Shown: piece after piece, positions 5,845 to 28,552 of the stretch
Layout: each line of letters begins with the position of its first letter
Numbering within the stretch: the stretch's first letter is position 1
NCBI GenBank assembly: GCA_025839675.1
Contig: CP104013.1
Span: 1,860,001-1,892,000 of the forward strand
Reading direction: 5' to 3'
Length of the DNA: 32,000 bases
From: Candidatus Lokiarchaeum ossiferum
GTDB taxonomy: Archaea; Asgardarchaeota; Lokiarchaeia; Sigyniarchaeales; Promethearchaeaceae
The notes under the pieces: generated by a model
Databases searched by the model: none
Told to the model about the DNA's origin: nothing
The model's input: the letters and a program-made list of their open reading frames with translations, nothing else
Made by a program: the position numbers and the translations under genes

Positions 5845-6106
5845 TTAATTACCTCAAATTTTTTGGTATTTAGTTATATTACTTACTCTAAAGGTCAAAT
5901 AAGTTTTATGGATAAATTTTCACAATTTACAAGCAAAATTTATTTAGCTAAAAGACTAAAACAAAACACTTTTTTTAAATTTAAGGAATTAAAAATAAAA
6001 CAATCAAGAAAAAATGAAAATTGAAAGCAGAAAGTCCAAATAAGAATGTCAAATTAAAAAATGAAACCTTACTTGGACCATATTTACAATAAATAAAGAA
6101 ATATTT

Positions 6107-6120
6107 AAAAAATCAAAAAA
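6107..6120 (-). terminator. Bipartite oligo-T tract (T6-GA-T6 on the minus strand) just downstream of partner gene copy 1
   Basis: The plus strand reads aaaaaatcaaaaaa at 6107-6120, 15-28 nt beyond the stop codon at 6135-6137. Oligo-T tracts act as archaeal terminators. An analogous T6-AA-T8 tract follows copy 2 although the flanks are otherwise unrelated. Confidence 0.5.
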
Positions 6121-6134
6121 GACTAAGTGAAGAA

Positions 6135-7268
6135 TCAATCAGCTGCGACTTCTTCCTTCTTTTTCGCCACCGCTTTCTTCAATTTCGCTTGAGCATAATA
6201 TTCGTCTTTCATCATATCCAAGGCTTTTAACAGCGCATTCGGATTTTGAGAGCGGGTACGATACTGTTGACGAATGTTGTCAATATTATAGCGCGGATAA
6301 AAGCGTTCAATGAAGAAATCCGAGGTCAAACAGAAATATTCATTGTTCTTATCGTCTTGGAAGACCGCAATCATCTTGGTTTCCCACATGGCTTTCAGAA
6401 CCCGATCCACATCATCCACCCCTTTCTTCCGAAGTTTTTCCAAGTCATTGCGGGTCACCATCGCTTCCCGCATCAATTTGATCACTTCGTAGCAAGCTGG
6501 ATCCAACAGAACTTTATCAATGATCGCCAAATTATCTGCTTCGCTGGGGACATACAGTTCAAAGAAATTCCGCACTTCCTTGATGTAAGAATCCTTCAAG
6601 GATGCAGGCAAGTGATGATCCACCGGATCTTTAACCAGCTCCACCGGAGGGGTGCGTAAGACCATGATATCTTCAGTTAAAAAGACCAAATCAGAAGATA
6701 ACCCCTTCACGGAAGCGATTTTCACGAGCCCAAGTTTCACCATCCCCGCCAAGAGGTTTTCCACATCCACAAAACCCTCGCGGTATTGATCCTTCATCCA
6801 AATCGAGATTTCAGATTTCGAAATGGCAGTTTCTTCCCGTAACCGATTCAGCAACATCCGTTTTACATCACTATTTAATAACATCCCATAGCGTTGTTCT
6901 TCGGTTAACGTTGGATAGACCGACAGACGTTGGAACAAGGGAGGCAAAATCGAATTTAAGGAATCCGACTCCAAATTCATCAGAATCTGGCGTGTAATTT
7001 CCGCTAAGCCCTCTTCATACACATCCCCATCTTCTTCAGCGGTGAGTATCAAGATCACATACACTGCCGATTCGGGTCCAGTATAATAGGAAGCGAGGTT
7101 GACCGCCCCTGCCGTCAATGACACCATTCCCGCTTCACCGGTAAATTCATGCTGAGAATACAGCTGCATCAAGGTTTTCTCTTGAATTACCACTTCTTCA
7201 GGGTAGGCACCTAACACTTCGACCCCTACCCGTTCATCCCAATGCATAATGACTAATCCGGTTGGCAT
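6135..7268 (-). CDS. 377-aa soluble partner protein, copy 1. Predicted longin/roadblock-like N-domain, two winged-helix-like domains and a Lys-rich tail. Function unknown.
   Basis: Complete ORF in the track. The ATG lies 1 nt after the stop of the upstream giant gene, with GGAGGG 7 nt upstream. No hydrophobic stretch long enough for a TM helix or signal peptide. No P-loop or catalytic motif recognised. Residues 1-360 are identical to the ORF at 13648-14781. Confidence 0.93.
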   Translation of the reverse strand: MPTGLVIMHWDERVGVEVLGAYPEEVVIQEKTLMQLYSQHEFTGEAGMVSLTAGAVNLASYYTGPESAVYVILILTAEEDGDVYEEGLAEITRQILMNLESDSLNSILPPLFQRLSVYPTLTEEQRYGMLLNSDVKRMLLNRLREETAISKSEISIWMKDQYREGFVDVENLLAGMVKLGLVKIASVKGLSSDLVFLTEDIMVLRTPPVELVKDPVDHHLPASLKDSYIKEVRNFFELYVPSEADNLAIIDKVLLDPACYEVIKLMREAMVTRNDLEKLRKKGVDDVDRVLKAMWETKMIAVFQDDKNNEYFCLTSDFFIERFYPRYNIDNIRQQYRTRSQNPNALLKALDMMKDEYYAQAKLKKAVAKKKEEVAAD

Positions 7269-7281
7269 TTTAAAGCCCTCC
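7266..7281 (-). promoter_or_regulatory. Translational-coupling junction: Shine-Dalgarno motif embedded in the last codons of the giant gene, then stop, 1 nt, start
   Basis: The minus strand reads GTA GGA GGG CTT TAA A ATG. GGAGGG (7281-7276) encodes the terminal ...VGGL and lies 7 nt upstream of the partner ATG (7268-7266). Confidence 0.7.
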
Positions 7282-10200
7282 TACTTTTTCATCACCTGAA
7301 GTGACATTTGCATCCTTATTAGATTTAACTTCATCGAGATTTAAAACTGCTGCTAAATCTAAATCGATTAAAGACCATCGATTTTTTAACCTTTCTAATA
7401 TTTCGTTCTTAGCAGACACTGTAATTAACTCATCTCCAATGGAACGCTTCTTTTCTATGTCCTTCTTAGTGGCGTCAATTTGCTTGATTATTAATGGAAT
7501 ATTGGCATACTTGATATAACTGTATGTTGCAAGTATTACTGCCATAGCTCCAATTGTAGCTCCAATTATCATCCAGGATCGATAAGTGACTCCTATTAGT
7601 GGATCTATAGGTAATCCAACTTGAAAAGCAATAGGAATAGAAGTTGTTGTATAATTTTCCCTTGTAATAATTATATTAAATTGATAGGGTTGATTTCTTG
7701 CTTCTAATAAAGCTAATTCATCTAAACTTAAGGTAATGGAATACACTCCAGCTGTGGCAGAATCTTCAATCAAATTGTACGTTTTTCCATTCAATTCAAA
7801 AGAGACGGATACATCAGACAAACTGATTCCACTAATTTTATCAGCAATATTAATACTAAAACTAATTTCCCTATTTTTCGGTGTAAATATAGTATTATTA
7901 TCGATATTTAATCCAGTTTGCAAGGAGAATTCTTTTCGTAAACAATTGAAAAATGCAGAAATTGTTGTAGATGTATAATTTTCAAGAAAACTAGTGACAT
8001 AAATTTTGTATTCACCAATTTTAATTGCATTTAATGAGAATTGATACAATCCATTACTTAGATCATCGAGAATTCCACTTTGAAGTATTTGAGACTCATC
8101 TTCTCTACTCACAATTTGATAATTCAATTGTGCACCTTCTATGTTTTTCCCATAAATCGCACTACTTTCATCAGTTACATTTAATTTAACGGAAAACTTT
8201 GTAGATTGATCTAAGATCAATTCAAAAGACTCTACATTTTGGATTTCAGTAGTTGAAGGAGTCAGACCAGTTCGAAGGGCTGTGATCCATATATATGGGC
8301 GAATCGATGCATTTTGGTATAATGAATAGTCTAGAGTTGGAATAGCATAAAATACCCCCGACGATTCGACAGATACAACACTAGTATTAAACCAAATTAA
8401 ATAGTACCCACTTCCATAATTCGGATTATTTTTCAAATTTTCCCAATCCCATAATAACCCTCGCTGATTTTCACCTAAGCTTAATAATTGTAATTCAATC
8501 CCTTCCACTTTATGAGTAATATTTAATGAAAGGACATCAGCAGCATCTAATGCCACATCAGAACGTGTTGGATCGACACTTTCATATCTTACAACGAAGG
8601 ATGAGATATTATTCCAAGGGTATACTGTTGGAGGAGTAATGATCTCCAGATTTGTATCCCAATAATCTAAAATCTCAAGATCGAGATAAATTGATTTGCT
8701 TTCATAGTAGAGCTTGGAAGCTTGAATCTTAACATCGTATTTCCCAATGTCATATAAATCAACATCAATGGAACAATTATAAACACCATTTCCATTGTTG
8801 AATAATGGAATTTCTGCATTATCTTCAACACCTTCAATGAATGCAGATACTGACGCACTCAAACCGAGATAGTTTTCAGATAAATCTGTATAATTGATTT
8901 GGAAGGTAATAATTTCTCCTTTAGCACCTTTCATATAAGTAGATGTGTAAGCAAATAAGTTATCGATAGACACATCTAATACTGTCGGATTTGCTATAAT
9001 TTGAAGGGCGTATGTTTGATCAACTTCCTTATAGTTGGTTTGATTTCCAAAAATTCTTAGAGTATAAATTCCAACAGGTAAATTCAAATTCACAATTGAA
9101 AGATTGTATGTACACCAGTTATCATCCATATCTTGATTCAAAACATATTGTTCAAGTACCCCCGAAACACTTCTACCTACTACTTCATAATTTAAAATGG
9201 CGTTAGAAATGTTTCTCATTTCAGGATAAACACTATAATAATCTACTTGAAGGGAAAGTGCACTATTCCATTGAATAACAAAATCTTCACCCTCATTTTT
9301 CATTTCGAGATAAGAATTGAAGTTCAATATTTCTATTTCAATCTCTAAAAACGAATCTTGAAGATCCGTTTTATTCAATAATAAACTAAAGATATAAGTG
9401 CCAGCAAATAATGATTCTGTGTAAAATGAAAGATTATAAAAACCAGAACCAACATCAAGATCTCCAATATTAGTTGAAGAATTCACAATTTGATTCGAAT
9501 CTTTCCGTAAAAGTGACCAAACACCTCCTGCACCTATAATAGGGACACCATCTTGAATATCTTCAAAATATAATTCTAATGAAAATATTTCTCCATAATA
9601 AACTTCTATAGAATAAGGTTCAATTGTGGTAATATTTTGTGAAGACCAATACTGAGAGCTAAACGAAGAGATAGTCAACTTAGTCTTATGTTCTTGAATA
9701 GAAACGTTGAATACTACAGAAGTTAAGCTAGTTAGTACAATAGTGTTTGTTAAGTTCTCATCTTGTCCGATATCATTTCCAATGATAAAACTACGCAATT
9801 TGTTTTTCACAGATACAGAAAAGTTCCATTGTGTTGCTGGTAATCTAAAAGTAACTATTCCATCACTGTTGGTTAAACTTGAGGTGATGTTAACATTCAC
9901 ACCAGAAGTTGCATTCATTAACGTGACATTTGCCGACCGTAAAATTTGATCATCATAATCTGAATAATAAATATCAGCAACAAAAATATTCAAGGTTGTT
10001 AGATTACAATTAAATATATCATAATAACGCCTACCATCAGAACCAATAGAAAACGTAATATCTTTGGTAAATATAGTATAGTTAACAGCATCATTCACAG
10101 AATATTTTACAGAAAATGACCATATATCATCATATAGTCCTTTAAAGGACACATTTCCAAATGAATTGCTTTGTTTTATAGTAATATCTTCGCCGCTGCT

Positions 10201-13200
10201 ATTTGATATTTGAATAAATGCCCCTTCAATGATTTTTTGGTCAATATCTTTTAAATTAACCATAATTCTGGCATCATAATTTTCGACAGCAGTTCCTTTA
10301 ATAACCCTAGGATCATTCTGTAACCCTTTGGCTCGAATTTTTGTTATACCACCATCATAATTATCAAAAACTTGACCGTACATCGTGAATGTCATCGTAT
10401 CTCCTGCAGGTACCGCTTGAGCACGAATTTGAAAAGAATTTGAAAGACCCCCTACCCCTAATGTCGCTCGATAAAGATAAGAATAAGATGTAGTTGGAGC
10501 AATATCCCAGACAGTTCCAACTCCAACCATATCATTTTCATCCCACATTGTATGCCAAGCTTCCTTACGGAATAGATAAGTTGCTGTAGTATCAATTGAA
10601 CTATAACTATCATCTGTACAAAATTCCTTTGATCCATCGATTCCTAAATCTGCATCGTCATCAAAATTCATCCCTCCAAATCCATAAGCTGTATCTTCGT
10701 CAACTGGTTGAGACCAATCATTTGTAAAAGTCCAGTATCCAGCACCTACTGCCGTTTTTGCATAGATTTGGTGATCAATTTTTATTGTATCATCAAGATA
10801 ATTCAGAGTATAAAATCGTTCGTAGATAAAATCTGACGAATCAAAAACCATCTTCATAACTACTCGGATTGGACCACTTGAAACAATTTGTAAACTTGAT
10901 AGACCATAAAAACAATTGTATGGCTCAGTATCATATCGCTGAGTTATTCCACCATATTGCCAATCTTTCAAAGCCCAGCCTCGACTTGTCCCTGGATTAG
11001 TTAAAGTTTTACCGGATCTAAGATCGGTCACCTCATAAATATGATCATGATATTGACCAACAGGAGGCAAACCTTCAGCCAAGGATATTTGAATCTTAGA
11101 GTTTCTAATTGTAAAATCATCGTTATCATTCATGATATAATCGAGAGCACTCGAACTTGTATAATTAACAGCGTCTTTATAATCAAATTCAGTATTGTCA
11201 AAATATATGAAATAAAATCGAGAACGTGATGAAGTAGTTTTCCCATCTGCCACCCAACAAAGAGTCCCTTTTGCGTTATTCTCTGCAATGAAATATTCAT
11301 CTTTATCAAATTGATAAGGAATTTCTCGAGATTCTCCCGAAAATTCATCCCATTCAATAATTCGAATTGAATTTTCGTCAAATGTGGAAAACACCCCTAA
11401 ATCAGTGAATATTTCAGTAAAATCCAATTCTTCTTCTATTAAATAATTACTGTAATAATGGTTTCCTTTTGGGGACGATAAATTCAAATTCAATCGATAG
11501 CTCCATTGGGCATCCCACCATGGAGCTTCAGAAATCATAGCTAAATTTGATTGATATTCACGATACGTTGGAGGATTCACATATATTTCAGGCATTCCCA
11601 TAAATGAAGAAGTTTGATTTAAATAAGCATAACCACCAAAATAATTGTTATTAATAATTGATTCTACTTCTCCAGTTGTATTGAAATATACGTAGTATTT
11701 TCTTACTTCACGAGTGTAGGTAGTTGATAAGGCAAGATCTGGGATTTCCGTTAAAACATTATTACTACTTGAAAAACCAGTCGTAAAACCCCAATTCGAA
11801 TCACCATCCCTATTTCTGTAACGTACCAATAAGGAATGCCACCCTTTAGTCACCTTAGCCAAATTATATCGTATATATTGAGTTAAATCCGCGGTTGAAT
11901 CATTATAATTATAACCTCGATTTACACCGTCCCAATAAAGCCACATATCATCAAGTCGTTCAGCAGTAAACCAAGTATATGTTGAATCAACAGTTTCAGG
12001 AAAATATATATAGGTTTGCGCCCAAGCATAATGATTTGTACCTCCTGGTACACCCAAAGGCACGCTAAAATCAATATAATTACCATTACTTAGGTATTCA
12101 TCCCATTGATATCCAAAAGTAATATCATCTGGACTATAATAGTTTTCTAAATTTATCACTCGAGTTTCCGTACCAACCACGGCCCAATTTCGAATAAAGC
12201 CTCCATAAGTATTATTACAAGATATTGTATCGGATCCATTTTTTATCCAAGAAATTGTAGCAGTTGCATTTAATTGTGAATCAAACCCAATAACTTCATC
12301 ATCCCAATCAATAGTCATTGTACGCTCGCCGTTCAAACTAGAAGTAGAATTATATTCAACTAAAATTGCAGAATCTAAGTCAATATCTGCAGATAATCGC
12401 ATATTCGAAAGCTGGTCAGTAAAATTTATTTTTTGAGAGAGAGTTTTATCTGTTTCCAAATTCATTTCATCAGTTACATCAATGGAAAATCTATATTGAT
12501 ATTCATTACCGTCAGAATACCATGGATCTTTTTGATCGCCATTATATATATCCACAATTTCTTCATCTGTTAGTTCCACATCATAGATACGTATGTCGTC
12601 GAGATAATCTGCAAAACGATAGTTATTTGATCGATAATTTCCAAGAATATACACTTCTGACATTGTTTTTCGGTTAGCACTCCCCAAAAATTCCCCATCT
12701 ATATAGAAATCAGTTTGAGAATCATGACCTGTTGCGACTAAATGATGCCATCCGGTATAAGAACTCAAGTCATGACCTATTCCAGACCAACCCGCATCAT
12801 AAGTTCCTAAATCATAAGTGTTAGGATAACCCCCAACCCAAAATTGTCCTTGACCACATACTAACATTTGCCACCTACCAACTTGGACAATATCTTTGAA
12901 CCAAGCAGATATGGTCCATTGTTCATCAAGATCCACATCATTTATTAAACGAATACGTGAATTGGATTCTGGAATATCCAACACATTTCCTCTTTCGGGA
13001 TCTAAATATTGACTCACGACTTCAGGAGTTCCGTCATGACCATTATTTGTGACATCGCGCCCCAAATCTTCGGAATCTTCAAAATCATAATGAGCAACTA
13101 AATGATCTGAGGCAATAATACCACTTGATCTAATAGATGCAGTATTTTCAGACTCATCGCCAACCAGATTTTCAAATGCGTCTGATGCGATATTAGAATC

Positions 13201-13323
13201 TAAAAAACTACTCATTTGAAGACTACTACTACACACGATAAATAGTATGCTTATAATTTTTACTTTATTTTTGAGAGATTTCAACATATTTTCATTCTCC
13301 TTTTTAAAAATCTTAATCTGCAT
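7270..13323 (-). CDS. Giant surface protein, paralog 2 (2017 aa): signal peptide, LamG-like lectin head, beta-sandwich modules, one C-terminal TM helix and a conserved cytoplasmic tail
   Basis: Complete ORF in the track. The true start is probably M13 (ATG at 13287-13285). It is preceded by AAAAAGGAGAATGAAAAT and gives MLKSLKNKVKIISILFIVCSSS, which looks like a signal peptide. N-x-S/T sequons are very frequent. Confidence 0.93.
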   Translation of the reverse strand: MQIKIFKKENENMLKSLKNKVKIISILFIVCSSSLQMSSFLDSNIASDAFENLVGDESENTASIRSSGIIASDHLVAHYDFEDSEDLGRDVTNNGHDGTPEVVSQYLDPERGNVLDIPESNSRIRLINDVDLDEQWTISAWFKDIVQVGRWQMLVCGQGQFWVGGYPNTYDLGTYDAGWSGIGHDLSSYTGWHHLVATGHDSQTDFYIDGEFLGSANRKTMSEVYILGNYRSNNYRFADYLDDIRIYDVELTDEEIVDIYNGDQKDPWYSDGNEYQYRFSIDVTDEMNLETDKTLSQKINFTDQLSNMRLSADIDLDSAILVEYNSTSSLNGERTMTIDWDDEVIGFDSQLNATATISWIKNGSDTISCNNTYGGFIRNWAVVGTETRVINLENYYSPDDITFGYQWDEYLSNGNYIDFSVPLGVPGGTNHYAWAQTYIYFPETVDSTYTWFTAERLDDMWLYWDGVNRGYNYNDSTADLTQYIRYNLAKVTKGWHSLLVRYRNRDGDSNWGFTTGFSSSNNVLTEIPDLALSTTYTREVRKYYVYFNTTGEVESIINNNYFGGYAYLNQTSSFMGMPEIYVNPPTYREYQSNLAMISEAPWWDAQWSYRLNLNLSSPKGNHYYSNYLIEEELDFTEIFTDLGVFSTFDENSIRIIEWDEFSGESREIPYQFDKDEYFIAENNAKGTLCWVADGKTTSSRSRFYFIYFDNTEFDYKDAVNYTSSSALDYIMNDNDDFTIRNSKIQISLAEGLPPVGQYHDHIYEVTDLRSGKTLTNPGTSRGWALKDWQYGGITQRYDTEPYNCFYGLSSLQIVSSGPIRVVMKMVFDSSDFIYERFYTLNYLDDTIKIDHQIYAKTAVGAGYWTFTNDWSQPVDEDTAYGFGGMNFDDDADLGIDGSKEFCTDDSYSSIDTTATYLFRKEAWHTMWDENDMVGVGTVWDIAPTTSYSYLYRATLGVGGLSNSFQIRAQAVPAGDTMTFTMYGQVFDNYDGGITKIRAKGLQNDPRVIKGTAVENYDARIMVNLKDIDQKIIEGAFIQISNSSGEDITIKQSNSFGNVSFKGLYDDIWSFSVKYSVNDAVNYTIFTKDITFSIGSDGRRYYDIFNCNLTTLNIFVADIYYSDYDDQILRSANVTLMNATSGVNVNITSSLTNSDGIVTFRLPATQWNFSVSVKNKLRSFIIGNDIGQDENLTNTIVLTSLTSVVFNVSIQEHKTKLTISSFSSQYWSSQNITTIEPYSIEVYYGEIFSLELYFEDIQDGVPIIGAGGVWSLLRKDSNQIVNSSTNIGDLDVGSGFYNLSFYTESLFAGTYIFSLLLNKTDLQDSFLEIEIEILNFNSYLEMKNEGEDFVIQWNSALSLQVDYYSVYPEMRNISNAILNYEVVGRSVSGVLEQYVLNQDMDDNWCTYNLSIVNLNLPVGIYTLRIFGNQTNYKEVDQTYALQIIANPTVLDVSIDNLFAYTSTYMKGAKGEIITFQINYTDLSENYLGLSASVSAFIEGVEDNAEIPLFNNGNGVYNCSIDVDLYDIGKYDVKIQASKLYYESKSIYLDLEILDYWDTNLEIITPPTVYPWNNISSFVVRYESVDPTRSDVALDAADVLSLNITHKVEGIELQLLSLGENQRGLLWDWENLKNNPNYGSGYYLIWFNTSVVSVESSGVFYAIPTLDYSLYQNASIRPYIWITALRTGLTPSTTEIQNVESFELILDQSTKFSVKLNVTDESSAIYGKNIEGAQLNYQIVSREDESQILQSGILDDLSNGLYQFSLNAIKIGEYKIYVTSFLENYTSTTISAFFNCLRKEFSLQTGLNIDNNTIFTPKNREISFSINIADKISGISLSDVSVSFELNGKTYNLIEDSATAGVYSITLSLDELALLEARNQPYQFNIIITRENYTTTSIPIAFQVGLPIDPLIGVTYRSWMIIGATIGAMAVILATYSYIKYANIPLIIKQIDATKKDIEKKRSIGDELITVSAKNEILERLKNRWSLIDLDLAAVLNLDEVKSNKDANVTSGDEKVGGL
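7273..7578 (-). other. C-terminal membrane anchor (SWMIIGATIGAMAVILATYSYIK) plus the 79-aa conserved cytoplasmic tail of paralog 2
   Basis: A roughly 23-residue hydrophobic helix is followed by YANIPLIIKQIDATKKDIEKKRSIGDELITVSAKNEILERLKNRWSLIDLDLAAVLNLDEVKSNKDANVTSGDEKVGGL. The tail aligns without gaps to the paralog 3 tail with 47/79 identities by hand. Confidence 0.8.
11188..11526 (-). other. DUF2341-like module (aa ~600-712) in paralog 2
   Basis: APWWDAQWSYRLNLNLSS...FDENSIRIIEWDE...EIPYQFDK...GTLCWVADG...RFYFIYFDN matches my recollection of the DUF2341 pattern (W-x-Y-R-K...I.F.D..G..LPYWIE...WVKV...IYMYYGN). Assigned by eye only. Confidence 0.45.
11764..12141 (-). other. Possible PA14-like carbohydrate-binding module (aa ~395-520) in paralog 2
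   Basis: YAWAQTYIYFPETVDSTYTWFTAERLDDMWLYWDGVNRG...LAKVTKGWHSLLVRYRNRDGDSNWGF resembles the PA14 core (F.a..G.YtF....DD...L.iDG......L..G.h.i.v.Y.n..G). Pattern recognition only. Confidence 0.3.
12538..13101 (-). other. LamG / concanavalin-A-like lectin domain (Laminin_G_3-type; aa ~75-262) in paralog 2
   Basis: LVAHYDFEDS...DVTNNGHDGT...GNVLDIPES...WTISAWFK...GWHHLVATGHDSQTDFYIDGEFLG...FADYLDDIRIYDVELTDEEI follows the characteristic Laminin_G_3 order (LvahY.FD..a.DsSGNG..G...g.al.FdG...T.saWvk...WhHvA.t.d...l.lYvDG...f.G.iDevRIYnraLs.eEI). Confidence 0.7.
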
Positions 13324-13619
13324 TTATAGTTTGTATAAGTCGTATATTTATTTTTCGCTCATCCCCATAGATTTTGGAATTCCAATACAATAATGGAAAT
13401 TGAAGTTTTATCAATTTCTTTCACATTAGAACCATTCCTTATAATAATGGATTTTTCTTTTGTTATAATCGAATTAAGGAATCAAAATGCTAAGGAAATT
13501 TGATAGATTAATTCACATTTAAGAGTTAGAAGAGGTTATTCCATATCCAGAAATGAGAAATGGTAAAAATCAAAAAAAATGTTGAAGAAGTAAAATTGGT
13601 TAAATTGTTTTTAGGAAGT

Positions 13620-13635
13620 AAAAAAAATTAAAAAA
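13620..13635 (-). terminator. Bipartite oligo-T tract (T6-AA-T8 on the minus strand) downstream of partner gene copy 2
   Basis: The plus strand has A8 (13620-13627), tt, then A6 (13630-13635), 13-28 nt beyond the stop at 13648-13650. The arrangement matches that after copy 1. Confidence 0.5.
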
Positions 13636-13647
13636 TTACGCCACGAA

Positions 13648-14781
13648 TTATTCTACTGCGACTTCTTCCTTCTTTTTCGCCGCCGCTTTCTTCAATTTCA
13701 CTTGGGCATAATACTCGTCCTTCATCATATCCAAGGCTTTTAACAGCGCATTCGGATTTTGAGAGCGGGTACGATACTGTTGACGAATGTTGTCAATATT
13801 ATAACGCGGATAAAAACGTTCAATGAAGAAATCCGAGGTCAAACAGAAATATTCATTGTTCTTATCATCTTGGAAGACCGCAATCATCTTGGTTTCCCAC
13901 ATGGCTTTCAAAACCCGATCCACATCATCCACCCCTTTCTTCCGAAGTTTTTCCAAATCGTTGCGAGTCACCATGGCTTCCCGCATCAATTTAATCACTT
14001 CATAGCAGGCCGGATCCAAGAGTACTTTATCGATGATCGCCAAATTATCCGCTTCACTGGGGACATACAGTTCAAAGAAATTGCGTACTTCCTTGATGTA
14101 AGAATCCTTCAAAGATGCCGGTAGATGATGATCCACGGGATCTTTGACCAACTCCACCGGAGGAGTACGTAAAACCATGATATCCTCGGTTAAAAAGACC
14201 AAATCAGAAGATAACCCCTTCACGGAAGCGATTTTCACAAGCCCAAGTTTCACCATCCCCGCCAAGAGGTTTTCCACATCCACAAAACCTTCGCGGTATT
14301 GATCCTTCATCCAAATCGAGATTTCGGATTTCGAGATGGCGGTTTCTTCCCGTAACCGATTCAATAACATCCGTTTGACATCACTATTTAATAACATCCC
14401 ATAGCGTTGTTCTTCGGTTAACGTTGGATAGACTGATAGACGTTGGAACAAGGGAGGCAAAATCGAATTTAAGGAATCCGACTCCAAATTCATCAGAATC
14501 TGACGCGTAATTTCCGCCAATCCTTCTTCATACACATCCCCATCTTCTTCAGCGGTGAGAATCAAGATCACATACACTGCCGATTCGGGTCCGGTATAAT
14601 AGGAAGCGAGATTGACCGCCCCTGCCGTCAATGACACCATTCCAGCTTCACCGGTAAATTCATGTTGGGAATAGAGTTGCATCAAGGTTTTCTCTTGAAT
14701 GACCACTTCTTCAGGGTAGGCCCCTAACACTTCGACACCCACCCGTTCATCCCAATGCATAATGACTAATCCGGTGGGCAT
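13648..14781 (-). CDS. 377-aa soluble partner protein, copy 2
   Basis: Complete ORF. The junction with the upstream giant gene is the same (GGAGGGCTTTAAAATG). Amino acid differences from copy 1 occur only at residues 361, 367, 376 and 377. The stop codon differs (TAA here, TGA in copy 1). Confidence 0.93.
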   Translation of the reverse strand: MPTGLVIMHWDERVGVEVLGAYPEEVVIQEKTLMQLYSQHEFTGEAGMVSLTAGAVNLASYYTGPESAVYVILILTAEEDGDVYEEGLAEITRQILMNLESDSLNSILPPLFQRLSVYPTLTEEQRYGMLLNSDVKRMLLNRLREETAISKSEISIWMKDQYREGFVDVENLLAGMVKLGLVKIASVKGLSSDLVFLTEDIMVLRTPPVELVKDPVDHHLPASLKDSYIKEVRNFFELYVPSEADNLAIIDKVLLDPACYEVIKLMREAMVTRNDLEKLRKKGVDDVDRVLKAMWETKMIAVFQDDKNNEYFCLTSDFFIERFYPRYNIDNIRQQYRTRSQNPNALLKALDMMKDEYYAQVKLKKAAAKKKEEVAVE

Positions 14782-14794
14782 TTTAAAGCCCTCC
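14779..14794 (-). promoter_or_regulatory. Translational-coupling junction (SD in terminal codons, stop, 1 nt, start), second instance
   Basis: The plus strand has cat at 14779-14781, t, tta at 14783-14785 and ccctcc at 14789-14794. This is identical to the junction at 7266-7281. Confidence 0.7.
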
Positions 14795-17700
14795 TACTTC
14801 TTCATCACCAGTGGTAATGACAGAATCTGATGCAGTTTTAACATCATTCACCCCTAAAATCGAAGCAAGATCTAAATCTAAAATATCCCATCGATCTTTA
14901 AGACGTTCAACAATTTCTTCTTTGGAGCTTATTGAGATATTGGATTCACCGATCTCATTGTTCTTTTCAATATCTTTTTTCGTTGCATTAATCTTTTTGA
15001 TAATCATCGGAATATTTGCATATTGGACATACTTGGTCACTCCTGCAATAACTATTGCCAATAATCCCACTGCACCACCAATAAATACAAAGATCTTTGG
15101 AACACCTACATTTCCTACAGTAAATTCTGGAGGTGTTACTGAAATAGTAATTGTAAATGGCTCAATGGTATAATTTGCTTTATCTACTGAAACGATTGCA
15201 ATTTCGGTTTTTGCTGCAAGTAGTGCGTTATAATCGATGGAAGCAGTATCTATCACATATCGATATGTTCCAAGAGTATCAGTTTCTTCGACAGTCCAAT
15301 TACTACCTCGATAGTTCATTGAAACTGCTGCCCCCGTTAAAGGTGCTTGAGCGACGGGATCATATAAAGAAAATTCGATCACAATATTTTCACCTTCAGG
15401 CATTTCAACAATTTTATCCGCCAATTCAGCGCTCAATGTTAGAGATATTGGTTTTTCTTTAATATTCAAAGTAATTGACGCAGATCGTTCAATATAATTT
15501 GCTTGACCCAAATGAACAACAAAGAAATACATTCCAACTTGACGTGTAGCAGTATTGAAATCAAGGAGATATTTTCCATCCCCAATATCAACCAATTGGC
15601 CTTCATGAGTTATGCCTTGGAATTCCCATTCGTAGTAAGCAACAATTGCATTTGAAATGCCAACGTATTCACTATCCTCATAAGCGAAAATCATCTGATA
15701 TCCTGTGGTCACATTAATTGAAGTATCCAAATTTACAAATATGGAATTATTAATACTCGTTTGAATCCGATTGATTTTTACATTTATCACTAAGTTTTGA
15801 GTTTGATATTGATATTTTGTGGCTTCAAGATGCATAGTATAAGACCCAACACTTAAAAACTCAGTAGAATTTAGTTCGATCTCATATACTCCTCCACCAA
15901 TCGGAGTCAAATACCCTGTAAAACCAGAAACTTGTCCAACATAATAAGAAATTTCCCCATCCGTTATTGGTCCGTCATTATGAGTATCGAAGAAAGAGAC
16001 TGAAACGGTGAAATTTTCCTTCCATGTTTTATCAAATGACGTTGCTTCTGCACTTATAGATGTGGAAATACCATTAACATAGACGGTGATATATATTTGA
16101 TTCGTTTCATATTGCGACTTGGTGAATTTAACTCGGAATGTGTAAGTTCCTTGTTTACCAAAATCAATCGTATTGAGTTCAAGAGTATATAACCCCATTC
16201 CAGAGTCTGTGAAGATCCCATTACCATATCCAACAGCGGAATAGGTTACTGGACCTCCAATTATGGCGGCAGGAACACTGAGGTTTCTAATATCCATAAG
16301 GTTTACAGAAATATTAAAAATATCTCCCCAATATGCCACTTTTTCATCATCTATATGATTAGAGGACAAAGAAGTTGGAATTATCTTGATGGTCAAAACA
16401 ATTAAAGCTTGGCGACTTCCATATGTTTCTGCGAAGGCATCCAATTGAATGGTATAGGTACCGTTTTGACCAAACTGTGTTGTATTAAATTCCAAACGGA
16501 ATTCATTAGAACCTATATAATTCAAAAATCCTGTAATTTCAGATAAAGAAGAGACATTATACGAGATTTGACCACCAATTACTTCTTGAATATCTTGAGG
16601 ATCTACAACATCTTCATAATATGCACCAATTGTAAAATTCTCTCCCCAGAAATATTCAATTTCATCTGAATAGATTAAAGTTAGATTTGTTTTGATTAAA
16701 TTAATATCTACAATAACTGTTAACTGTCGAGATTGATATTCATCCTTACTCGCTACAACGATGAAAGTATAAGTTCCAGCTCCAGGAAAATCGTCATCAG
16801 TATTAAATGTGATATTGTAGGTACCACCACCAACATGGGAAATAGTCCCAGACGCAGAATACCCACTTGGTCCAGAAACCACATAAGAAATGGATCCATC
16901 GGTAATTGCTATAGGATTCTGTGAATCAGAGTTATCCAAGTAACTTACAGATATGTTAAAATTCTGATTCAATTGTTTTGAAATAGTTAATTCATCTGCT
17001 GTCAAAATTGTAGAAATAATTGAAACATCAACGGTTAACACTACCTGTTGAGTCAAATATTGATTTTTCGTTGCAGTCATGGTTATGGTATAAGTTCCAT
17101 TACCTCCAATATCGGTTTCAGAATTTAATGATAAATAATAAATTCCTGAGCCTTGAGGAGTAAGAAAACCAGAAGCAATTACACCTACAGGACTTATGGT
17201 AAAAGAGACGGTTCCATCATTTATCGGAATAGAAGACGCAAGTTGTTCATCCGTAAAAGTAACCGAAAGAACAAAATTTTCACCCCAGATCACTTCAATA
17301 ACGGAATCACCATTAAGAACTAAATCTGTAGGTACAATGGAAATAGTTAACACTATACTCATTTGAACGGTTTCATATTGGTTCTTTGTTGCAGTGATTG
17401 TAAAAGTATAAGTTCCTGCGTGATCAAAATTAATTGAATTGAAATCAAAGGAATACACACCTGGATTGCTCGATTGATGATTAAGGATACCTAAATCTGA
17501 ATATCCTGAACCCGAGACACTAAAATCGACATTGCTATCAAGAATAGGAGAATCATCTCTAGAATCAGTTAAAGTAACAGAAACAGTAAACCCTTCACCC
17601 CAAAATACATCAATTTCATCATTCCCGACCAAATTAACGGGAATCTTGGAAATATTCAAGAGAATGGATAACGATCTAGTTCCATAATTTACTTTACTCG

Positions 17701-21961: not shown

Positions 21962-22456
21962 ATGACATGTATGAGACAATTTAGGATCAATTTTGAATGT
22001 GAGATATGTGGTCTTGATACGAAGAGTTATTCCACTCAAATTCATAGATGTGTTGAATGTGGAAGGATCAAGTGCGCAAATTGTCGTCAGGGAGACTTTT
22101 GTATCAATTGTTATGAAAAATTAACTTTTAATCTCAAAAAAGAATTTGAACAAAAAAGAATTATTTGGCGATTATTATACACCCTATTCGCTTTTGGAAC
22201 AATAATATTCACAATTTTCTTATTCATGAACAAATTATTTTCCCATCCTAAGGCGAACTTGGGAATTGGAGGTTTATTTCTTGTTATGATAGGTTTCATC
22301 GGATTAAATAAATATTATGGATGGATCCATGGTCCCCTTTATCACGTAGCAGAGCATCTTGCGGCGCAAAATTTTTCATTTTTGCGAGAAAAAGAAAAAG
22401 CTCAATCAAATCAAGTCAAGGAAGAAATCATCGATATGCACAATGCCACAAATTGA
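21962..22456 (+). CDS. Membrane protein with an N-terminal four-CxxC zinc-binding module and two predicted TM helices
   Basis: The ORF encodes CEIC...CVEC..KCANC...FCINC (four CxxC pairs in about 40 aa). Hydrophobic stretches follow: IIWRLLYTLFAFGTIIFTIFLFM and LGIGGLFLVMIGFIGL. It is transcribed divergently from giant paralog 3. Confidence 0.7.
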   Translation: MTCMRQFRINFECEICGLDTKSYSTQIHRCVECGRIKCANCRQGDFCINCYEKLTFNLKKEFEQKRIIWRLLYTLFAFGTIIFTIFLFMNKLFSHPKANLGIGGLFLVMIGFIGLNKYYGWIHGPLYHVAEHLAAQNFSFLREKEKAQSNQVKEEIIDMHNATN

Positions 22457-22737
22457 ACTTAGAAAATAAGGAAACTAACTCATACGATTTTATTCAGTTA
22501 ATCAAAAATGGTCAATATTCCTCTTTCAAAAAAGAAGTTTTGAACACACTCACCCAATAAAACCATATTTTTTTTTCCCAGCTTTTGAAAAAATGGGATT
22601 TTAATAGCAAAATACAAGTTTAGATAACAAATTTTGGATATGAGAGCGTAAGAACTATAAGTAGAAGTATAGAGAAGTCCAATGATATTTTCAAGGATAA
22701 TTTTGCATATTGTTAACAGAATGTTGTCAAAAAACAC

Positions 22738-22819
22738 TTCGAATGCGAAGCTTTAAATTAACGTTTTGTTATTATTATTTTAGAGTTCGAAAACGAATAC
22801 TTCGAAATCGAATAATTCG
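22738..22819 (+). promoter_or_regulatory. Cluster of TTCGAA palindromes, including a tandem 15-nt direct repeat; candidate operator upstream of the PadR gene
   Basis: TTCGAA occurs at 22738-22743, 22786-22791 and 22801-22806. TTCGAAAACGAATAC (22786-22800) is followed directly by TTCGAAATCGAATAA (22801-22815), with 13/15 identical. A 5-bp hairpin CTTCG-aatg-CGAAG lies at 22737-22750. All sit within about 105 nt upstream of the probable ATG at 22842. Confidence 0.4.
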
Positions 22820-22841
22820 TACAAGAGGAAATCGGAAAAAA

Positions 22842-23450
22842 ATGTTCCCGCGTAAAGCTTTGGATCTAATCATACTATCAATTCTAAATGACAACACCGA
22901 AGGATTATCTGGTTATTCATTAGTGATGAAAATTAAAGAATTCTTTCCGATAACAAATGTATCCCCCGGCACAATCTACCCAAAACTCAAGAAACTTAGT
23001 GATGCAAATGATATCAAAGAACTGGAGAAAATATACAAAATCACAGATCAAGGAAAACAACGATTACAAGAGAGTACACCAAAGATTATCGACGATACCC
23101 TTAGCTTTATGCCCAAACTCTATAAAATATTGATTGGCACTTTACCTTTCAATAAAAGAATGAATTATATGTCAGACATTCCTTCTTGTTTCCATTTTGG
23201 AGCCGGTCACGAGTATGATGAAACAATATTTTCAAAAGAATCTGTTTGTTCATCCAATATCTCCGGTTCTTTAAAACACTTGACAGCTATGAAGGAAAAA
23301 CTCGAAGAATCCAAAATTCGAATTCAACAACAAGCAGACCAGCGATTGCAACATATCGAGAAACGTTTAAAAGCAATACAACAGAAAATCGATGAATGTA
23401 ATAAGGAAAAAGAACAATGGACCAAGATTCCAATCGTGGAAGATGATTGA
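22842..23450 (+). CDS. PadR-family transcriptional regulator with a C-terminal coiled-coil extension
   Basis: ALDLIILSILNDNTEGLSGYSLVMKIKEFF...VSPGTIYPKLKKLSDANDIKE...YKITDQGKQRL matches the PadR winged-helix pattern (hGYei...i...vs.GtlYp.L.rLe..G.i...Y.lT..G). The track ORF begins at a TTG at 22710. The ATG at 22842, preceded by GAGGAA, is more plausible because the upstream 44 residues look like non-coding translation. Confidence 0.8.
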   Translation: MFPRKALDLIILSILNDNTEGLSGYSLVMKIKEFFPITNVSPGTIYPKLKKLSDANDIKELEKIYKITDQGKQRLQESTPKIIDDTLSFMPKLYKILIGTLPFNKRMNYMSDIPSCFHFGAGHEYDETIFSKESVCSSNISGSLKHLTAMKEKLEESKIRIQQQADQRLQHIEKRLKAIQQKIDECNKEKEQWTKIPIVEDD

Positions 23451-23510
23451 TTCATACCTTTAACATTCAGCTTTTGCAATTATGAATTTCATAAATTCAC
23501 ACCATTTTTT

Positions 23511-23613
23511 AAAACACCAACCCAAACCCCAACTACAAGACCAAACAAAAAAAAAACCCAACCAAAACCCAACCATAAGACCAACCCTACCCCAAACCAT
23601 CAACCAACAGACC
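23511..23613. repeat. Strand-asymmetric A+C-only low-complexity tract, G/T-rich with six G3-4 runs on the opposite strand
   Basis: In about 103 nt I count only 3 G and 4 T on the plus strand. The tract has three degenerate units, each ending in A(A/C)AGACC (acaagacc, ataagacc, aacagacc), and an A10 run at 23547-23556. CA-rich sequence resumes at about 23950-24030 around the Hsp20 start. Confidence 0.75.
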
Positions 23614-23706
23614 TGGAGATGATGTCAAAAAACACGAAACCATCCACCTAAACAACTGAATAAAATCATTTTTTTATGAACTATCTGATACTATGGAGAC
23701 CTAGCG

Positions 23707-23946
23707 ATGTCCGAAGGACTTACAATTGACCAACTACAGAATCCGGCATGGGAAGCCATCTTTGATCAACAGATTTTCATGCCACAAGATCTCATGGAGA
23801 TAAATATCCAAACACCAAACGAACTATCCGTAAAGGAACAAGTGGCCAGTAGAACTGGTAAAATTGAACAGAAAGATTGGAAATATTTTAATCAGAGTAA
23901 CAAGCAACTTAAAACTTTACAGAAACGATACCCCTATCTCTATTAA
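23707..23946 (+). CDS. Hypothetical 79-aa protein
   Basis: The ATG is preceded by GGAGA 7 nt upstream (tatGGAGAcctagcgATG). It has the same orientation as hsp20 and lies immediately upstream of it. No recognisable motif. Confidence 0.4.
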   Translation: MSEGLTIDQLQNPAWEAIFDQQIFMPQDLMEINIQTPNELSVKEQVASRTGKIEQKDWKYFNQSNKQLKTLQKRYPYLY

Positions 23947-23991
23947 ATTTTTTTAGAAACACACCATTAACACACAGGAGACACACGACAC

Positions 23992-24399
23992 ATGCACTAC
24001 ACACACGGATGCCACGGACCAAACCCCCAAATGTTTCAATTCTACATGAATAAATATGCGGGGTATATGCCCTACGATTTAGAAGAAGACGAAGGGACAT
24101 ACTATGTCACTATGCCCTTACCTGGATTTGATGTCAAAGATATCGAAGTTTCTGTCAAAGGAGATGCAATTCTGATAGAAGCAAAGAAACCACAAGAAAA
24201 CACCGAAAAAGACCCTCCAAAACGGAAAAAAATTATAAACATTGGAGATGCAATATGGAAACGGCCGATTAGCGTAAAAATTCCGGTTCATGATGAAATC
24301 GATCCGGCAAAAGTAAAAGCTAAATTAAAACGCGGAATTTTAGAAGTAAATTTTTCTAAAAAACCAGGGATGAAAGTTCCTATCGCTGAAGAGGAATAA
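23992..24399 (+). CDS. hsp20: Small heat-shock protein, Hsp20/alpha-crystallin family
   Basis: YYVTMPLPGFDVKDIEVSVKGDAILIEAKK...ISVKIPVHDEIDPAKVKAKLKRGILEVNFSKK matches the alpha-crystallin domain pattern. AGGAGA lies about 10 nt upstream of the ATG. Confidence 0.85.
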   Translation: MHYTHGCHGPNPQMFQFYMNKYAGYMPYDLEEDEGTYYVTMPLPGFDVKDIEVSVKGDAILIEAKKPQENTEKDPPKRKKIINIGDAIWKRPISVKIPVHDEIDPAKVKAKLKRGILEVNFSKKPGMKVPIAEEE

Positions 24400-24412
24400 A
24401 ATTCCATTCTAA

Positions 24413-24419
24413 TTTTTTT
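24413..24419 (+). terminator. Oligo-T (T7) tract 14 nt after the hsp20 stop
   Basis: taaaattccattctaaTTTTTTTc. Archaeal-type oligo-T terminator candidate. Confidence 0.4.
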
Positions 24420-24724
24420 CTAGTTTATCTAACAAAAAAGAAGTATGAAAATGACCCCGCCCACTAATTCTCCGAAAATTCAAGTCAATGAAAACCGCTT
24501 AATCTTACTGAAGAAAACGCGGAGCGAGACTCATAAACTAAAAATTGACAACCATCAGCCAATAAAGCAAATGTGGGGACCCACTAAACAATATTTTGCA
24601 TCCCTCGAAAATATTTATAACGAAGTGTTACAACCAAAAGTTGAAAGAGACTGAGATAGAGAGTAGTTCACCAAAAAATACTTGCAAATTTCGATATTAT
24701 TCGTCAAACATTTCACTTCTCAAT

Positions 24725-26014
24725 TCAATTAACAATTATGCTGTTTTTTCCCACTTTTTCAGCCATAAATGGTTTCAAGAAGAAGATAGATACCCAGTAT
24801 AATGGGACTAAGAATATTTCAACGAAAATCGAGATAATGAATGGAGCCCTATGATCAACACGATCCCAGACTAAACCTCCAATATTAGGCCCAAAAAATC
24901 CACCCAAAAGTTTCATCCATTCAGCCATTCCGAAGATTTTCCCTCGATGTAATTGAGAAGTCCGGCTAAGGACATTTTCCATTAAAAGTAGATTAGCTCG
25001 TGCGAAAGTGAAATCAAAGGTGAGCAAAAGACTGAAAACAACGGGAGAAGAAGTCTGAATGAGAAACCAAGTCATTGCCCCACCGATACAACTTAAGAAT
25101 AAAATACCCACACGTGGATTGATGCGATCACAAATTTTCCCCATGTAGGGCGCCATCAATAAGGAGGTAATTTGGGCGGGAAAATATATGAGCATGACGA
25201 GAGTAGGATTTTGGATGATATTTTCAATCAGATAGACTTGCAAAAAGGGTTCAGCCAAAGTATCGTTCATCCGGCTTGCCATCAGAGCAAGAGTTAACAA
25301 AAAAAATGCCCCTAAAAATTTCTTGGACATTTTGTTTGATTCCATTTGAGTGGGTAGACCTTCAGAGGAATTTTTGATTACAAGTTCAGATTGCTCGTTA
25401 CGATCACTATTATAAGAGAAGATTTTTTCTTTTTTAAACTCCGCAAACGAGTAATGCTCATCCACATTTCGGTAAAAATACAGCCCTGCAAAGATATTAA
25501 TAACTGCAAAAATTAGAAAGGGGGAATAGACGATTAATAACTTATCCGGAATAAAATGGTGAGCTAAAGTGAAAACAGAAAAGCTGAAAGCTGAACCAGC
25601 CAAACTCCCCCATCCAATCATGCTACTCCTTTTTCCGTAGGCTTCTGATCGAAAGTATTTATTCGATTTTTCCGCAACGAGTGAATTGAAGGGGGGCCAA
25701 AAAAATCCCACTAAAACACCTTGGGTAAAAATTCCCGCTCCAAAGAGAGGTATGGAGTGCAACACAATGGATAAATAATACATAATATAAGAAATACAAC
25801 GACCTAAAGCCCCCACCATGACAAGTTTCTTTTTAGAGACCCGATCTGTCAGATAACCGATTAAGGGAGTGCTAAGAAGTCTTCCAAAAGCTTGAAGAGA
25901 GACGATTAAGCCCATCTCAGATCCACTAGCTCCAAATAATTGAATCGGTACATAAGAAACAATAAAGCCAAAAAAGAGAAATCCAAGACTATTCCAAAAC
26001 ACAATTTGAATCAT
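24725..26014 (-). CDS. MFS-type transporter (429 aa), paralog A
   Basis: Multiple hydrophobic helices. The motif-A-like GYLTDRVSKKK follows TM2. It is collinear with the ORF at 28677-30026 (FWNSLGFLFFGF/FWNSMGFFFFNF; FWPPFNSLVAEKSNK/FWPPFNALVSEKSNK; APFIISIFVE/SPFIISIFVE). Confidence 0.85.
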   Translation of the reverse strand: MIQIVFWNSLGFLFFGFIVSYVPIQLFGASGSEMGLIVSLQAFGRLLSTPLIGYLTDRVSKKKLVMVGALGRCISYIMYYLSIVLHSIPLFGAGIFTQGVLVGFFWPPFNSLVAEKSNKYFRSEAYGKRSSMIGWGSLAGSAFSFSVFTLAHHFIPDKLLIVYSPFLIFAVINIFAGLYFYRNVDEHYSFAEFKKEKIFSYNSDRNEQSELVIKNSSEGLPTQMESNKMSKKFLGAFFLLTLALMASRMNDTLAEPFLQVYLIENIIQNPTLVMLIYFPAQITSLLMAPYMGKICDRINPRVGILFLSCIGGAMTWFLIQTSSPVVFSLLLTFDFTFARANLLLMENVLSRTSQLHRGKIFGMAEWMKLLGGFFGPNIGGLVWDRVDHRAPFIISIFVEIFLVPLYWVSIFFLKPFMAEKVGKNSIIVN

Positions 26015-26192
26015 CGGTTTAAAATCAGGGGTAACGATAGGATCATTAATCGATTGTGCTCGCTTTTTTATTTGAAATGGTATGATTTATCCCCAGATCA
26101 AATGAATGGAGGATGAAATAAGTAAGTTATCAATTTTCACAAACGACAAATAGGATGATTACTTTACCTTAACCAGAAAGTGATTGTCTGTT

Positions 26193-27485: not shown

Positions 27486-27511
27486 GCAATCTTAACAAAA
27501 TAACTAGTGAC

Positions 27512-27895
27512 ATGTTTCGTGTTAAAATGAATAAGTATCTTGCACAGTTTGCTGAAGTATCAATTCTGCGATCCACCGGAAGTTGCAATTTTTTCGGATT
27601 AGAATCGAAAGGCCGAAAGCAGATACGAGGGAATGGAGTCTTAGTACTCACAACCCAAGAACTTTGTTTTCAAATGTATCTGCCCACAAGAGAATGGCGC
27701 ATCCCTTTGTCATCTATTACATCAATAGAAACCCCAAAAAGTCACTTAGGTAAAACCAAATTTCGTCCTTTATTAATGGTCAAATTTATCAACAATGAAG
27801 GACTACCCGACTCGATAGCATGGTGGATTTTAGAATTAGACAAATGGGTTAAAGATATCCAGCAAGCAAGGGAGAAGGCCAAATCTAGTTTTTAA
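27512..27895 (+). CDS. Small protein with a PH-like/GRAM-like sequence pattern
   Basis: GNGVLVLTTQELCFQMYL...WRIPLSSITSIETPK...LLMVKF...DSIAWWILELDKWVKDIQQA resembles GRAM/bacterial-PH folds (G.l.lT...l.F......ipl..I..ie, then a C-terminal helix). It lies 26 nt after the U32 gene on the same strand. Fold assignment is by eye. Confidence 0.6.
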   Translation: MFRVKMNKYLAQFAEVSILRSTGSCNFFGLESKGRKQIRGNGVLVLTTQELCFQMYLPTREWRIPLSSITSIETPKSHLGKTKFRPLLMVKFINNEGLPDSIAWWILELDKWVKDIQQAREKAKSSF

Positions 27896-28109
27896 CAATT
27901 CTAAGGAAAATTACCAATCTTTTTCTAATACTAACGCATGGCTAATCCCCCATTGTTTGTCTCTTATATATCTTTAGATTAGAGAACCGCTACCAAATTT
28001 ATGAGTGAAATTAAGAAAATTTAATCTATCTTTTTTTGTCGTCATTTTATTGCAATTTTTCCAATATGAATATTATTAGTACTCACCTTCCTACTTTCAT
28101 TGTATAACG

Positions 28110-28409: not shown

Positions 28410-28552
28410 ACAAGAATTCTGTCTTTCTGCTCAATTATTGGTAATTCAAAGATTTTATCTTTGTTTGGATTTCGTTCCATTCTTATCTCTATCCTATCTT
28501 CAATGAAATGCATAATGTTATTGGGATCCATTAGTTTTGCGATATTAGTCAT
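28406..28552 (-). CDS. Candidate small protein (48 aa), below the length cut-off of the ORF track
   Basis: The minus strand reads GGAGGGTTGTAAAATATG, a strong SD 9 nt upstream of the ATG at 28552-28550. My translation is MTNIAKLMDPNNIMHFIEDRIEIRMERNPNKDKIFELPIIEQKDRILV*. Its stop (28408-28406) overlaps the stop of the convergent 99-aa ORF. Confidence 0.35.
   Translation of the reverse strand: MTNIAKLMDPNNIMHFIEDRIEIRMERNPNKDKIFELPIIEQKDRILV

Follow-up and report, generated by a model that had tools for sequence, protein, structure and literature searches.

In this study, we explored the evolution of two paralogous 1134-nt genes in a 32,000-nt stretch of the genome of Candidatus Lokiarchaeum ossiferum B35 (contig CP104013.1, positions 1,860,001 to 1,892,000 of the forward strand; hereafter the window, whose own numbering is used throughout). 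Each gene encodes a 377-aa protein, here called the partner, and directly follows the gene of a giant surface protein. Residues 1-360 of the partner are under near-absolute purifying selection, a constraint that is real and specific to the genus Lokiarchaeum; replacements are tolerated only in the relaxed tail, residues 361-377. Our findings make it likely that episodic gene conversion or recombination, confined to the partner open reading frame (ORF), acts on top of this extreme selection, in modules that each form one transcription unit composed of a giant, hypervariable, single-pass surface protein and the coupled 377-aa protein. Three such modules run consecutively on the minus strand and begin with the giant genes G2, G1, and G3; G2 is followed by partner copy B and G1 by copy A, and copy C (NEF87_001531), which belongs to G3, lies just outside the window in B35. 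Copy A is 100% identical to NEF87_001533 of B35, and copy B is NEF87_001535. The three-module array is also present in the closed genome of strain B36 (CP163304; average nucleotide identity to B35, 97.2%). The genes concerned are as follows.

6135..7268, minus strand: partner copy A (NEF87_001533 / UYP45248.1), 377 aa
6138..6188, minus strand: variable tail of copy A, codons 361-377, the Lys-rich end of the C-terminal helix
13648..14781, minus strand: partner copy B (NEF87_001535 / UYP45250.1), 377 aa, residues 1-360 the same as in copy A
13651-13701, minus strand: variable tail of copy B, counterpart of codons 361-377
7270..13323, minus strand: giant surface protein G1, 2017 aa
14783..21652, minus strand: giant surface protein G2, 2289 aa
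1..5844, minus strand: third giant gene, G3, more than 1948 aa, extending past the window edge

A gap-free alignment of copies A and B of B35 (wA and wB) shows 69 differences over 1134 nt (6.1%). Within codons 1-360 there are 63 differing nucleotides in 62 codons, all of them synonymous, and replacements occur only at residues 361 (A/V), 367 (V/A), 376 (A/V), and 377 (D/E); the two genes also end in different stop codons, TGA and TAA. An earlier note, made from the letters of the window, had counted about 60 silent differences over 360 identical residues, with the amino acid differences restricted to the last 17 residues and unlike stop codons. Both statements hold for these genes, which lie on the minus strand, and translation on the correct strand reveals no nonsynonymous change in residues 1-360. 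Nei-Gojobori counts for codons 1-360 (S=234.5, N=845.5, Sd=63, Nd=0) give a synonymous divergence (dS) of 0.33. Since only ~22% of these sites are synonymous, 63 silent changes out of 63 are not a matter of chance; arithmetic from the same counts places the probability without selection at ~1e-42. The differences are evenly spread, with a longest identical run of 83 nt, and no significant tract emerges from the clustering tests (maximum gap P=0.27, dispersion P=0.23, GENECONV-like P=0.55). Thus, substitutions clustered between long identical tracts, the alternative that the earlier note had envisaged, are not observed in this pair. Nor do silent changes fall unusually on particular classes of site, as the ratio of four-fold to two-fold silent differences (2.0-2.9) falls inside the control range (2.1-3.4); given this normal distribution, the anomaly consists of missing replacements and not of surplus silent change. 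An overlapping antisense gene was rejected as a cause because antisense ORFs are not conserved between the copies. Two such ORFs are found within the partner genes, both on the plus strand (6246-6659, 137 aa; 13759-14124, 121 aa); the silent differences alter or truncate them, and they are probably a by-product of G/C-rich third positions.

The wider comparison includes copies A and B of B35 plus the three copies of B36 (s2_A, s2_B, and s2_C), the DNA of copy C being taken from B36 only. Among these five copies 148 codon columns vary, and at least 159 silent changes stand against one conservative replacement (V212I) in residues 1-360. The resulting ratio of nonsynonymous to synonymous divergence (omega) is ~0.0017, with a 95% upper bound of 0.008; for the wA/wB pair alone it is <0.011. 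In the tail, 5 nonsynonymous and 4 synonymous changes are observed, against 1 and 159 in the core (Fisher p=7e-7). The silent-core pattern recurs among the three copies of B36, and the two copies carried by L014, a sister-lineage metagenome contig, differ in core codons 326-360 by 6 silent changes and no replacement, but in the tail by 5 replacements. When the Lokiarchaeum partner is compared with that of L014, 5 core replacements are found at a dS of at least 1.2 (omega ~0.01), whereas six syntenic neighbouring genes display omega values of 0.05-0.15. The near-absolute purifying selection that the earlier note had proposed for residues 1-360 is thus borne out. The orthologue comparison that it suggested adds a phylogenetic limit. 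Single-copy orthologue pairs of Promethearchaeum, similar in silent divergence to the copies (dS 0.43-0.87), differ at 6-9% of residues, with omega 0.057-0.069, indistinguishable from that of the genes neighbouring the orthologue there (0.05-0.16). At the Promethearchaeum omega, our own arithmetic predicts ~16 replacements for the wA/wB pair, and none is seen. With omega at ~0.0017 in Lokiarchaeum and ~0.06 in Promethearchaeum, the constraint is therefore lineage-specific.

The genes alongside the partner are of a very different nature. In general, the giants carry a signal peptide, LamG and Ig-like domains, a single C-terminal transmembrane helix, and a cytoplasmic tail of ~80 aa; G1, for instance, combines a signal peptide, Laminin_G_3 and Ig-like/CarboxypepD_reg-like domains, one C-terminal transmembrane helix, and a cytoplasmic tail. 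Substantial alignment of G2 with G1 is limited to the C-terminal ~280 aa (34% identity), other BLASTP matches being short or at 21-32% identity. The Shine-Dalgarno motif of the partner, GGAGG, lies within the last codons of the giant (V-G-G-L), stop and ATG are 1 nt apart, and the partner is, as read from this junction, translationally coupled to the giant surface protein. The conserved GG[LI] end of the giants may be a by-product of the partner's ribosome-binding site. The elements of the modules and the domains predicted for copy A are listed below.

7273..7557, minus strand: transmembrane helix and conserved ~80-aa cytoplasmic tail of G1, with motifs A.IP..[IV]K, W..[LI]D.D, and terminal GG[LI]
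14786-15070, minus strand: transmembrane helix and conserved cytoplasmic tail of G2, counterpart of the G1 segment
7266..7281, minus strand: coupling junction of module A, with GGAGG at 7281-7277, TAA at 7272-7270, a 1-nt spacer, and ATG at 7268-7266
14779-14794, minus strand: coupling junction of module B, counterpart of that of module A
6107..6120, minus strand: two oligo-T tracts directly after the copy A stop, read from the sequence
13620-13635, minus strand: paired oligo-T tracts after the copy B stop, read from the sequence
7268-6909, minus strand: longin domain of copy A, about residues 1-120
6902-6300, minus strand: two winged-helix domains of copy A, about residues 123-323
residues 343-376 of copy A, minus strand: long C-terminal helix

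The paired oligo-T tracts would represent archaeal terminator-like signals at the end of each module, and suggest that every giant-plus-partner module is a transcription unit of its own. The arrangement extends well beyond the window. In all 16 loci for which upstream sequence is available, covering Promethearchaeum, Harpocratesius, other Lokiarchaeia, and one L. ossiferum paralogue, a large ORF with conserved transmembrane helix and tail ends 1-3 nt before the ATG of the partner homologue; the L. ossiferum paralogue, 60% identical to the partner, follows a giant of 3420 aa. An exhaustive profile search for the partner family yielded 456 cluster representatives. In at least nine fusion proteins (P0124-P0131 and P0163; 588-2548 aa) a partner domain of ~365 aa sits at the C-terminus of the giant, and the six that were read through (P0125, P0127-P0131) share the order ectodomain, transmembrane helix, conserved tail, linker, partner. 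By the Rosetta-stone criterion, these natural fusions indicate that giant and partner act as one unit. From fusions and translational coupling together, a 1:1 physical complex at the cytoplasmic face of the membrane is the most likely arrangement, in which the 377-aa partner would dock, with 1:1 stoichiometry, on the conserved ~80-aa cytoplasmic tail of its giant. One caveat applies to such docking: when the 82-aa tail of G1 is artificially joined to the partner in an AlphaFold2 (AF2) model, the tail has a low predicted local distance difference test score (pLDDT) of 26-57, and no confident docking is obtained. The earlier note described the partner as an accessory-looking gene, a view contradicted by its conservation as the cytoplasmic component of the module and by its fusion to the giant in certain lineages. 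Two loci deserve separate mention. At L001:9890-10000 (metagenome-assembled genome [MAG] CSMAG_2474) the giant ORF shifts frame ~85 nt before the partner while the conserved tail continues in the other frame, which reflects either an assembly error or a pseudogenised giant. A contig assigned to a Methanosarcinaceae MAG has, at its edge (L010:1-276), a partner fragment that covers residues 35-126 with 86% amino acid identity; this contig was most likely mis-binned and comes from a Lokiarchaeon. A metagenome scan returned only four further loci, all distant.

Why exactly this subunit is frozen in a single genus can be approached through the number of giants that it accompanies. In Lokiarchaeum three giants stand beside one partner sequence, and their tails are only about 60% identical; conversion would, in addition, carry partner ORFs from one module to another. 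Multi-giant sharing is most likely the reason for the frozen protein: one protein sequence would have to serve several co-resident, divergent giants together with shared cytoplasmic partners, any replacement would have to suit all of these tails and shared partners, and co-evolution of the partner with any single giant would thereby be blocked, whereas the single pair of Promethearchaeum would be free to co-evolve. The earlier note had likened the gene to proteins locked into multi-partner complexes. This lock is plausible, the constraint being seen only where several giants share one partner sequence; its status as the cause is drawn from that same correlation. Three considerations count against the explanation: the correlation spans two genera; redundancy among three copies would usually relax selection, not tighten it; and the strong codon bias (G+C at four-fold degenerate third positions, GC4, of 0.71) could mean high expression, which also slows protein evolution. 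A corresponding alternative, in which the partner is simply very abundant in Lokiarchaeum, with three copies and optimised codons, and the multi-giant context is incidental, strikes us as unlikely. It agrees with the strong, codon-specific shift of the partner ORFs and with the lack of this shift in the single-copy paralogue and single-copy orthologues; yet two-fold codons show no shift to C- or G-ending forms, the coupled, co-transcribed giant has the lowest third-position G+C (GC3) in the window (0.22), and literature searches found no expression data for these proteins.

The codon shift itself forms a sharply bounded island. Partner ORFs, those of loci L011-L013 included, have a GC3 of 0.50-0.52 (0.44 in L014, at 5969-7102), against 0.19-0.37 in every other L. 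ossiferum gene examined, with abrupt steps at the borders. It is confined to four-fold boxes, where GC4 reaches 0.70-0.74 over a background of 0.25-0.34; two-fold sites remain near background (C/(C+T) 0.17-0.26, G/(A+G) 0.22-0.27). Codon choice is accordingly skewed (ACC.66, GTG.55, GGG.53, GGC.03), and none of the 38 Arg codons of the partner is AGA or AGG. The island is not seen in the single-copy L. ossiferum paralogue or in the single-copy orthologues of Promethearchaeum, Harpocratesius, and L005, and GC4 is intermediate (0.44-0.47) in lineages L008 and L018/L006. Simple GC-biased gene conversion was rejected as its cause, since two-fold sites are not enriched and GGG (.53) far exceeds GGC (.03), and classical translational selection does not fit a shift limited to four-fold sites.

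With respect to structure, the AF2 model of the partner (pLDDT 90) displays an N-terminal longin domain, with element order beta-beta-alpha-beta-beta-beta-alpha, followed by two winged helices and a long basic C-terminal helix; pLDDT drops in the variable tail, residues 361-377. R13, within a WDER.G hairpin, and R114 are invariant in the family. The top Foldseek matches are the GATOR1 NPRL2/NPRL3 chains (E 1.7e-4), with a global TM-score of only ~0.2, and later matches include CPLANE, DENND1, the longin domains of Ykt6, VAMP7, and Sec22, a Lokiarchaeal Roadblock-Longin protein, and ESCRT-II Vps22. For the longin matches (Ykt6, VAMP7, Sec22b, and the Loki Roadblock-Longin 8yqg) the Foldseek probability is 0.99-1.0. 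The partner protein matches no Pfam family at E<=0.01, and NCBIfam and PDB profile searches returned no match; the NPR2/NPR3 models match none of 51 family members at E<=1. Thus, sequence does not identify the partner as a eukaryotic NPRL2/NPRL3, and by fold such an identity would be tentative (global TM-score ~0.2). It does belong to the asCOG family cog.008476 + cog.000164: UYP45248.1 and UYP45250.1 are listed as "NPRL2-like longin domain" plus "HTH domain" under these two identifiers, respectively (supplement of 10.64898/2026.02.13.705702), the same pair is carried by ORTHOMCL28 (PMC9834061), and the NPRL2-like longin domain is a known family of Asgard eukaryotic signature proteins (ESPs) (10.1101/2020.10.19.343400). 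The partner is probably the cytoplasmic component, itself invariant, of a surface-receptor module of Lokiarchaeia, and L. ossiferum carries three copies of it in tandem. In some family members (P0167, P0173, P0201) SIR2_2 and TPR domains, or TPR alone, are found C-terminal to the longin/winged-helix module, which is therefore also wired to other effector-like domains.

The two winged helices and the Lys-rich C-terminal helix would also suit a transcription factor that the giant's tail keeps at the membrane until a surface signal frees it, instead of a GTPase- or cytoskeleton-type adaptor. The asCOG label of one part ("HTH domain, transcription") and a source that assigns a homologue to the ArsR family point in the same direction. 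We nonetheless find this role doubtful, since the best whole-chain structural matches are longin/winged-helix protein-interaction assemblies (GATOR1, ESCRT-II), the fusions keep the partner tethered to the membrane, and no DNA-binding family of Pfam or NCBIfam was matched.

The partner ORFs and their surroundings have different histories. Over the last 280 codons of G1 and G2, directly upstream of the partner, dS is saturated (1.1-2.1) until ~8 codons before the stop; it then falls sharply at the ORF border, to 0.33 in the partner ORFs, and downstream of the partner stop identity collapses within ~30 nt. The last 8 codons of the giants have dS=0, explained by the overlapping GGAGG Shine-Dalgarno motif of the partner. 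Measured against L014, the ORF shows a normal pace of silent change (dS 1.2-1.6), and the low dS is therefore not caused by synonymous constraint. Rather, with flank dS saturated and ORF dS at 0.33, the ORFs must have been homogenised after the modules diverged, and share a much more recent ancestor than their flanks. The comparison between strains leads to the same picture. In a five-way alignment with flanks (A2), both flanks match by position (wA with s2_A, wB with s2_B), while the ORF interiors at these matching positions differ by 94 nt (wA vs s2_A) and 80 nt (wB vs s2_B), so that partner ORFs appear as islands of 88-95% identity between B35 and B36 in a background of ~99%. The ORF of wB is closest to s2_C (15 differences) and returns to B-type sequence between codons 368 and 374. 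The five copies fall into four ORF lineages at three positions; at least one allele therefore derives from a copy since lost or from a source beyond the two genomes. A GENECONV-like permutation test recovers tracts of 191 nt in s2_A/s2_B (P<0.0002), 362 nt in wB/s2_C (P=0.009), and 119 nt in other comparisons (P~0.03), and 503 of 1128 site pairs fail the four-gamete test. Two results fit less comfortably: a PHI-like test on the five sequences is only borderline (P=0.054), and within the wA/wB pair neither the clustering nor the GENECONV-like tests detect a conversion tract.

Gene conversion would be limited to the ORF because homology ends at its edges, and would occasionally overwrite a copy, some donors being alleles present in neither sequenced genome. 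It would hold the dS of the ORFs to 0.06-0.5 beside giant genes that have reached saturation, and would be rare enough for dozens of silent differences to build up between events. The giant genes are themselves mosaic between B35 and B36, with blocks of 65-85% identity in the ~99% background (21480-20730, 18330-15033, 4380-3934, and 3300-1684); in G2 the mosaic block has dS ~0.9-1.2 and omega ~0.11-0.15. These blocks suggest recombinational replacement of ectodomain segments.

The earlier note had read the silent differences as the mark of copies that have simply been separate since an old duplication, under absolute purifying selection alone and with no conversion. The extreme selection, the even spread of the wA/wB differences, and the lack of a significant tract between them are in line with that history; it is nevertheless highly improbable, given the contrast between the ends of the giants and the ORFs in dS (1.1-2.1 vs 0.33), the normal silent rate of the ORFs vs L014, the disagreement of ORFs and flanks between strains, and the tracts in other pairs. 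Little credence can likewise be given to selection on the silent divergence itself, whereby differences of 6-9% among three 1.1-kb direct repeats would suppress recombination that deletes giants. The repeats do lie 6-7 kb apart, and, with the three pairs affected by conversion set aside, identical runs reach no more than 50-119 nt. Their differences are, however, no more evenly spaced than random (dispersion 0.99 vs a simulated 0.76), conversion does occur and gives runs of 191-362 nt, and selection per silent site would be very weak. Misassembly or polishing errors can practically be dismissed: although repeated 1.1-kb genes are hard to assemble, errors would not be exclusively synonymous, the same pattern is found in an independent closed genome and a metagenome contig, and each copy has 22-32 private variants.

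Episodic, ORF-bounded conversion combined with near-absolute purifying selection is an evolutionary pattern of a known kind, that of identical-protein paralogues under concerted evolution. Vertebrate CALM1-3, the histone H4 genes, and bacterial tufA/tufB are multi-gene families that encode one protein under purifying selection, with or without gene conversion. As in these families, the Lokiarchaeum paralogues specify an identical or near-identical protein from genes that differ at silent sites, and with the tuf and histone genes they share the conjunction of episodic gene conversion and strong constraint. An excess of GC3 has been reported in converting histone paralogues, and that of the converting Lokiarchaeum copies is similar. 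Unlike CALM, H4, and tuf, the partner is not a universal housekeeping gene, being a lineage-restricted subunit encoded between hypervariable giant genes; its conversion is bounded exactly by the ORF, its constraint is genus-specific (omega 0.002 vs 0.06), and its GC excess is found at four-fold sites only. In architecture, a longin domain followed by winged helices is shared with NPRL2/NPRL3 of GATOR1 and with the longin regulators FLCN, C9orf72-SMCR8, DENN, and CPLANE, and the length of the partner (377 aa) is similar to that of the matched GATOR1 chains (362-406 residues). Still, the partner has no Pfam or PDB sequence match, aligns with a TM-score of ~0.2, and is coupled to a giant surface protein, for which GATOR1 has no counterpart. 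Integrin and talin/kindlin form receptor and cytoplasmic-adaptor pairs, and offer a functional analogy: a single-pass surface protein whose ectodomain is large and whose cytoplasmic tail is short and conserved, accompanied by a conserved cytosolic protein. The two systems are not homologous, however, and giant and partner, which would presumably bind each other, are encoded as a translationally coupled operon or a fusion. Consecutive genes for very large extracellular proteins are also known from Apilactobacillus kunkeei, where Giant1-5 are tandem genes for products of several thousand residues (PMC12863079); the abstract of that work describes no interleaved gene for an invariant cytoplasmic partner.

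The remaining genes of the window (21962-31971) are ordinary: a PadR regulator, HSP20, two MFS transporters, a peptidase U32, an AsnC/Lrp regulator, and a CAAX protease. Neither a GTPase gene nor a cytoskeletal one adjoins the array, and the window contains no GTPase, DEPDC5-like, Rag-like, or tRNA gene.

Few relatives of the archaeal ancestor of eukaryotes are in culture, and L. ossiferum is one of them. Its large surface proteins form an irregular coat, which is believed to mediate the cell-cell contacts that matter for eukaryogenesis (PMC9834061). Our findings connect those giant proteins with a eukaryote-like longin protein previously listed only as an "NPRL2-like" ESP; the link is a genetic one, and in some lineages also covalent. 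In the searchable literature, no description was found of these locus tags or of the module, nor of an ESP-type longin/winged-helix subunit coupled to hypervariable giants in an Asgard archaeon. With omega ~0.002, the partner is among the most tightly constrained genes measurable, and it provides a clean archaeal example of concerted evolution together with the lineage-specific freeze of a protein. The specific giant/partner pair is hereby nominated for a surface-to-interior connection in Asgard cells. More tentatively, and well beyond what we consider probable, the module could be an archaeal outside-in signalling device, in which giant adhesins would be wired through their tails to an NPRL2-like platform regulating small GTPases or the cytoskeleton, and the frozen ORFs would serve as homology arms for the exchange of ectodomain cassettes between strains. 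If so, this signalling module would be a prokaryotic forerunner of the receptor-adaptor-longin control of GTPases in eukaryotes.

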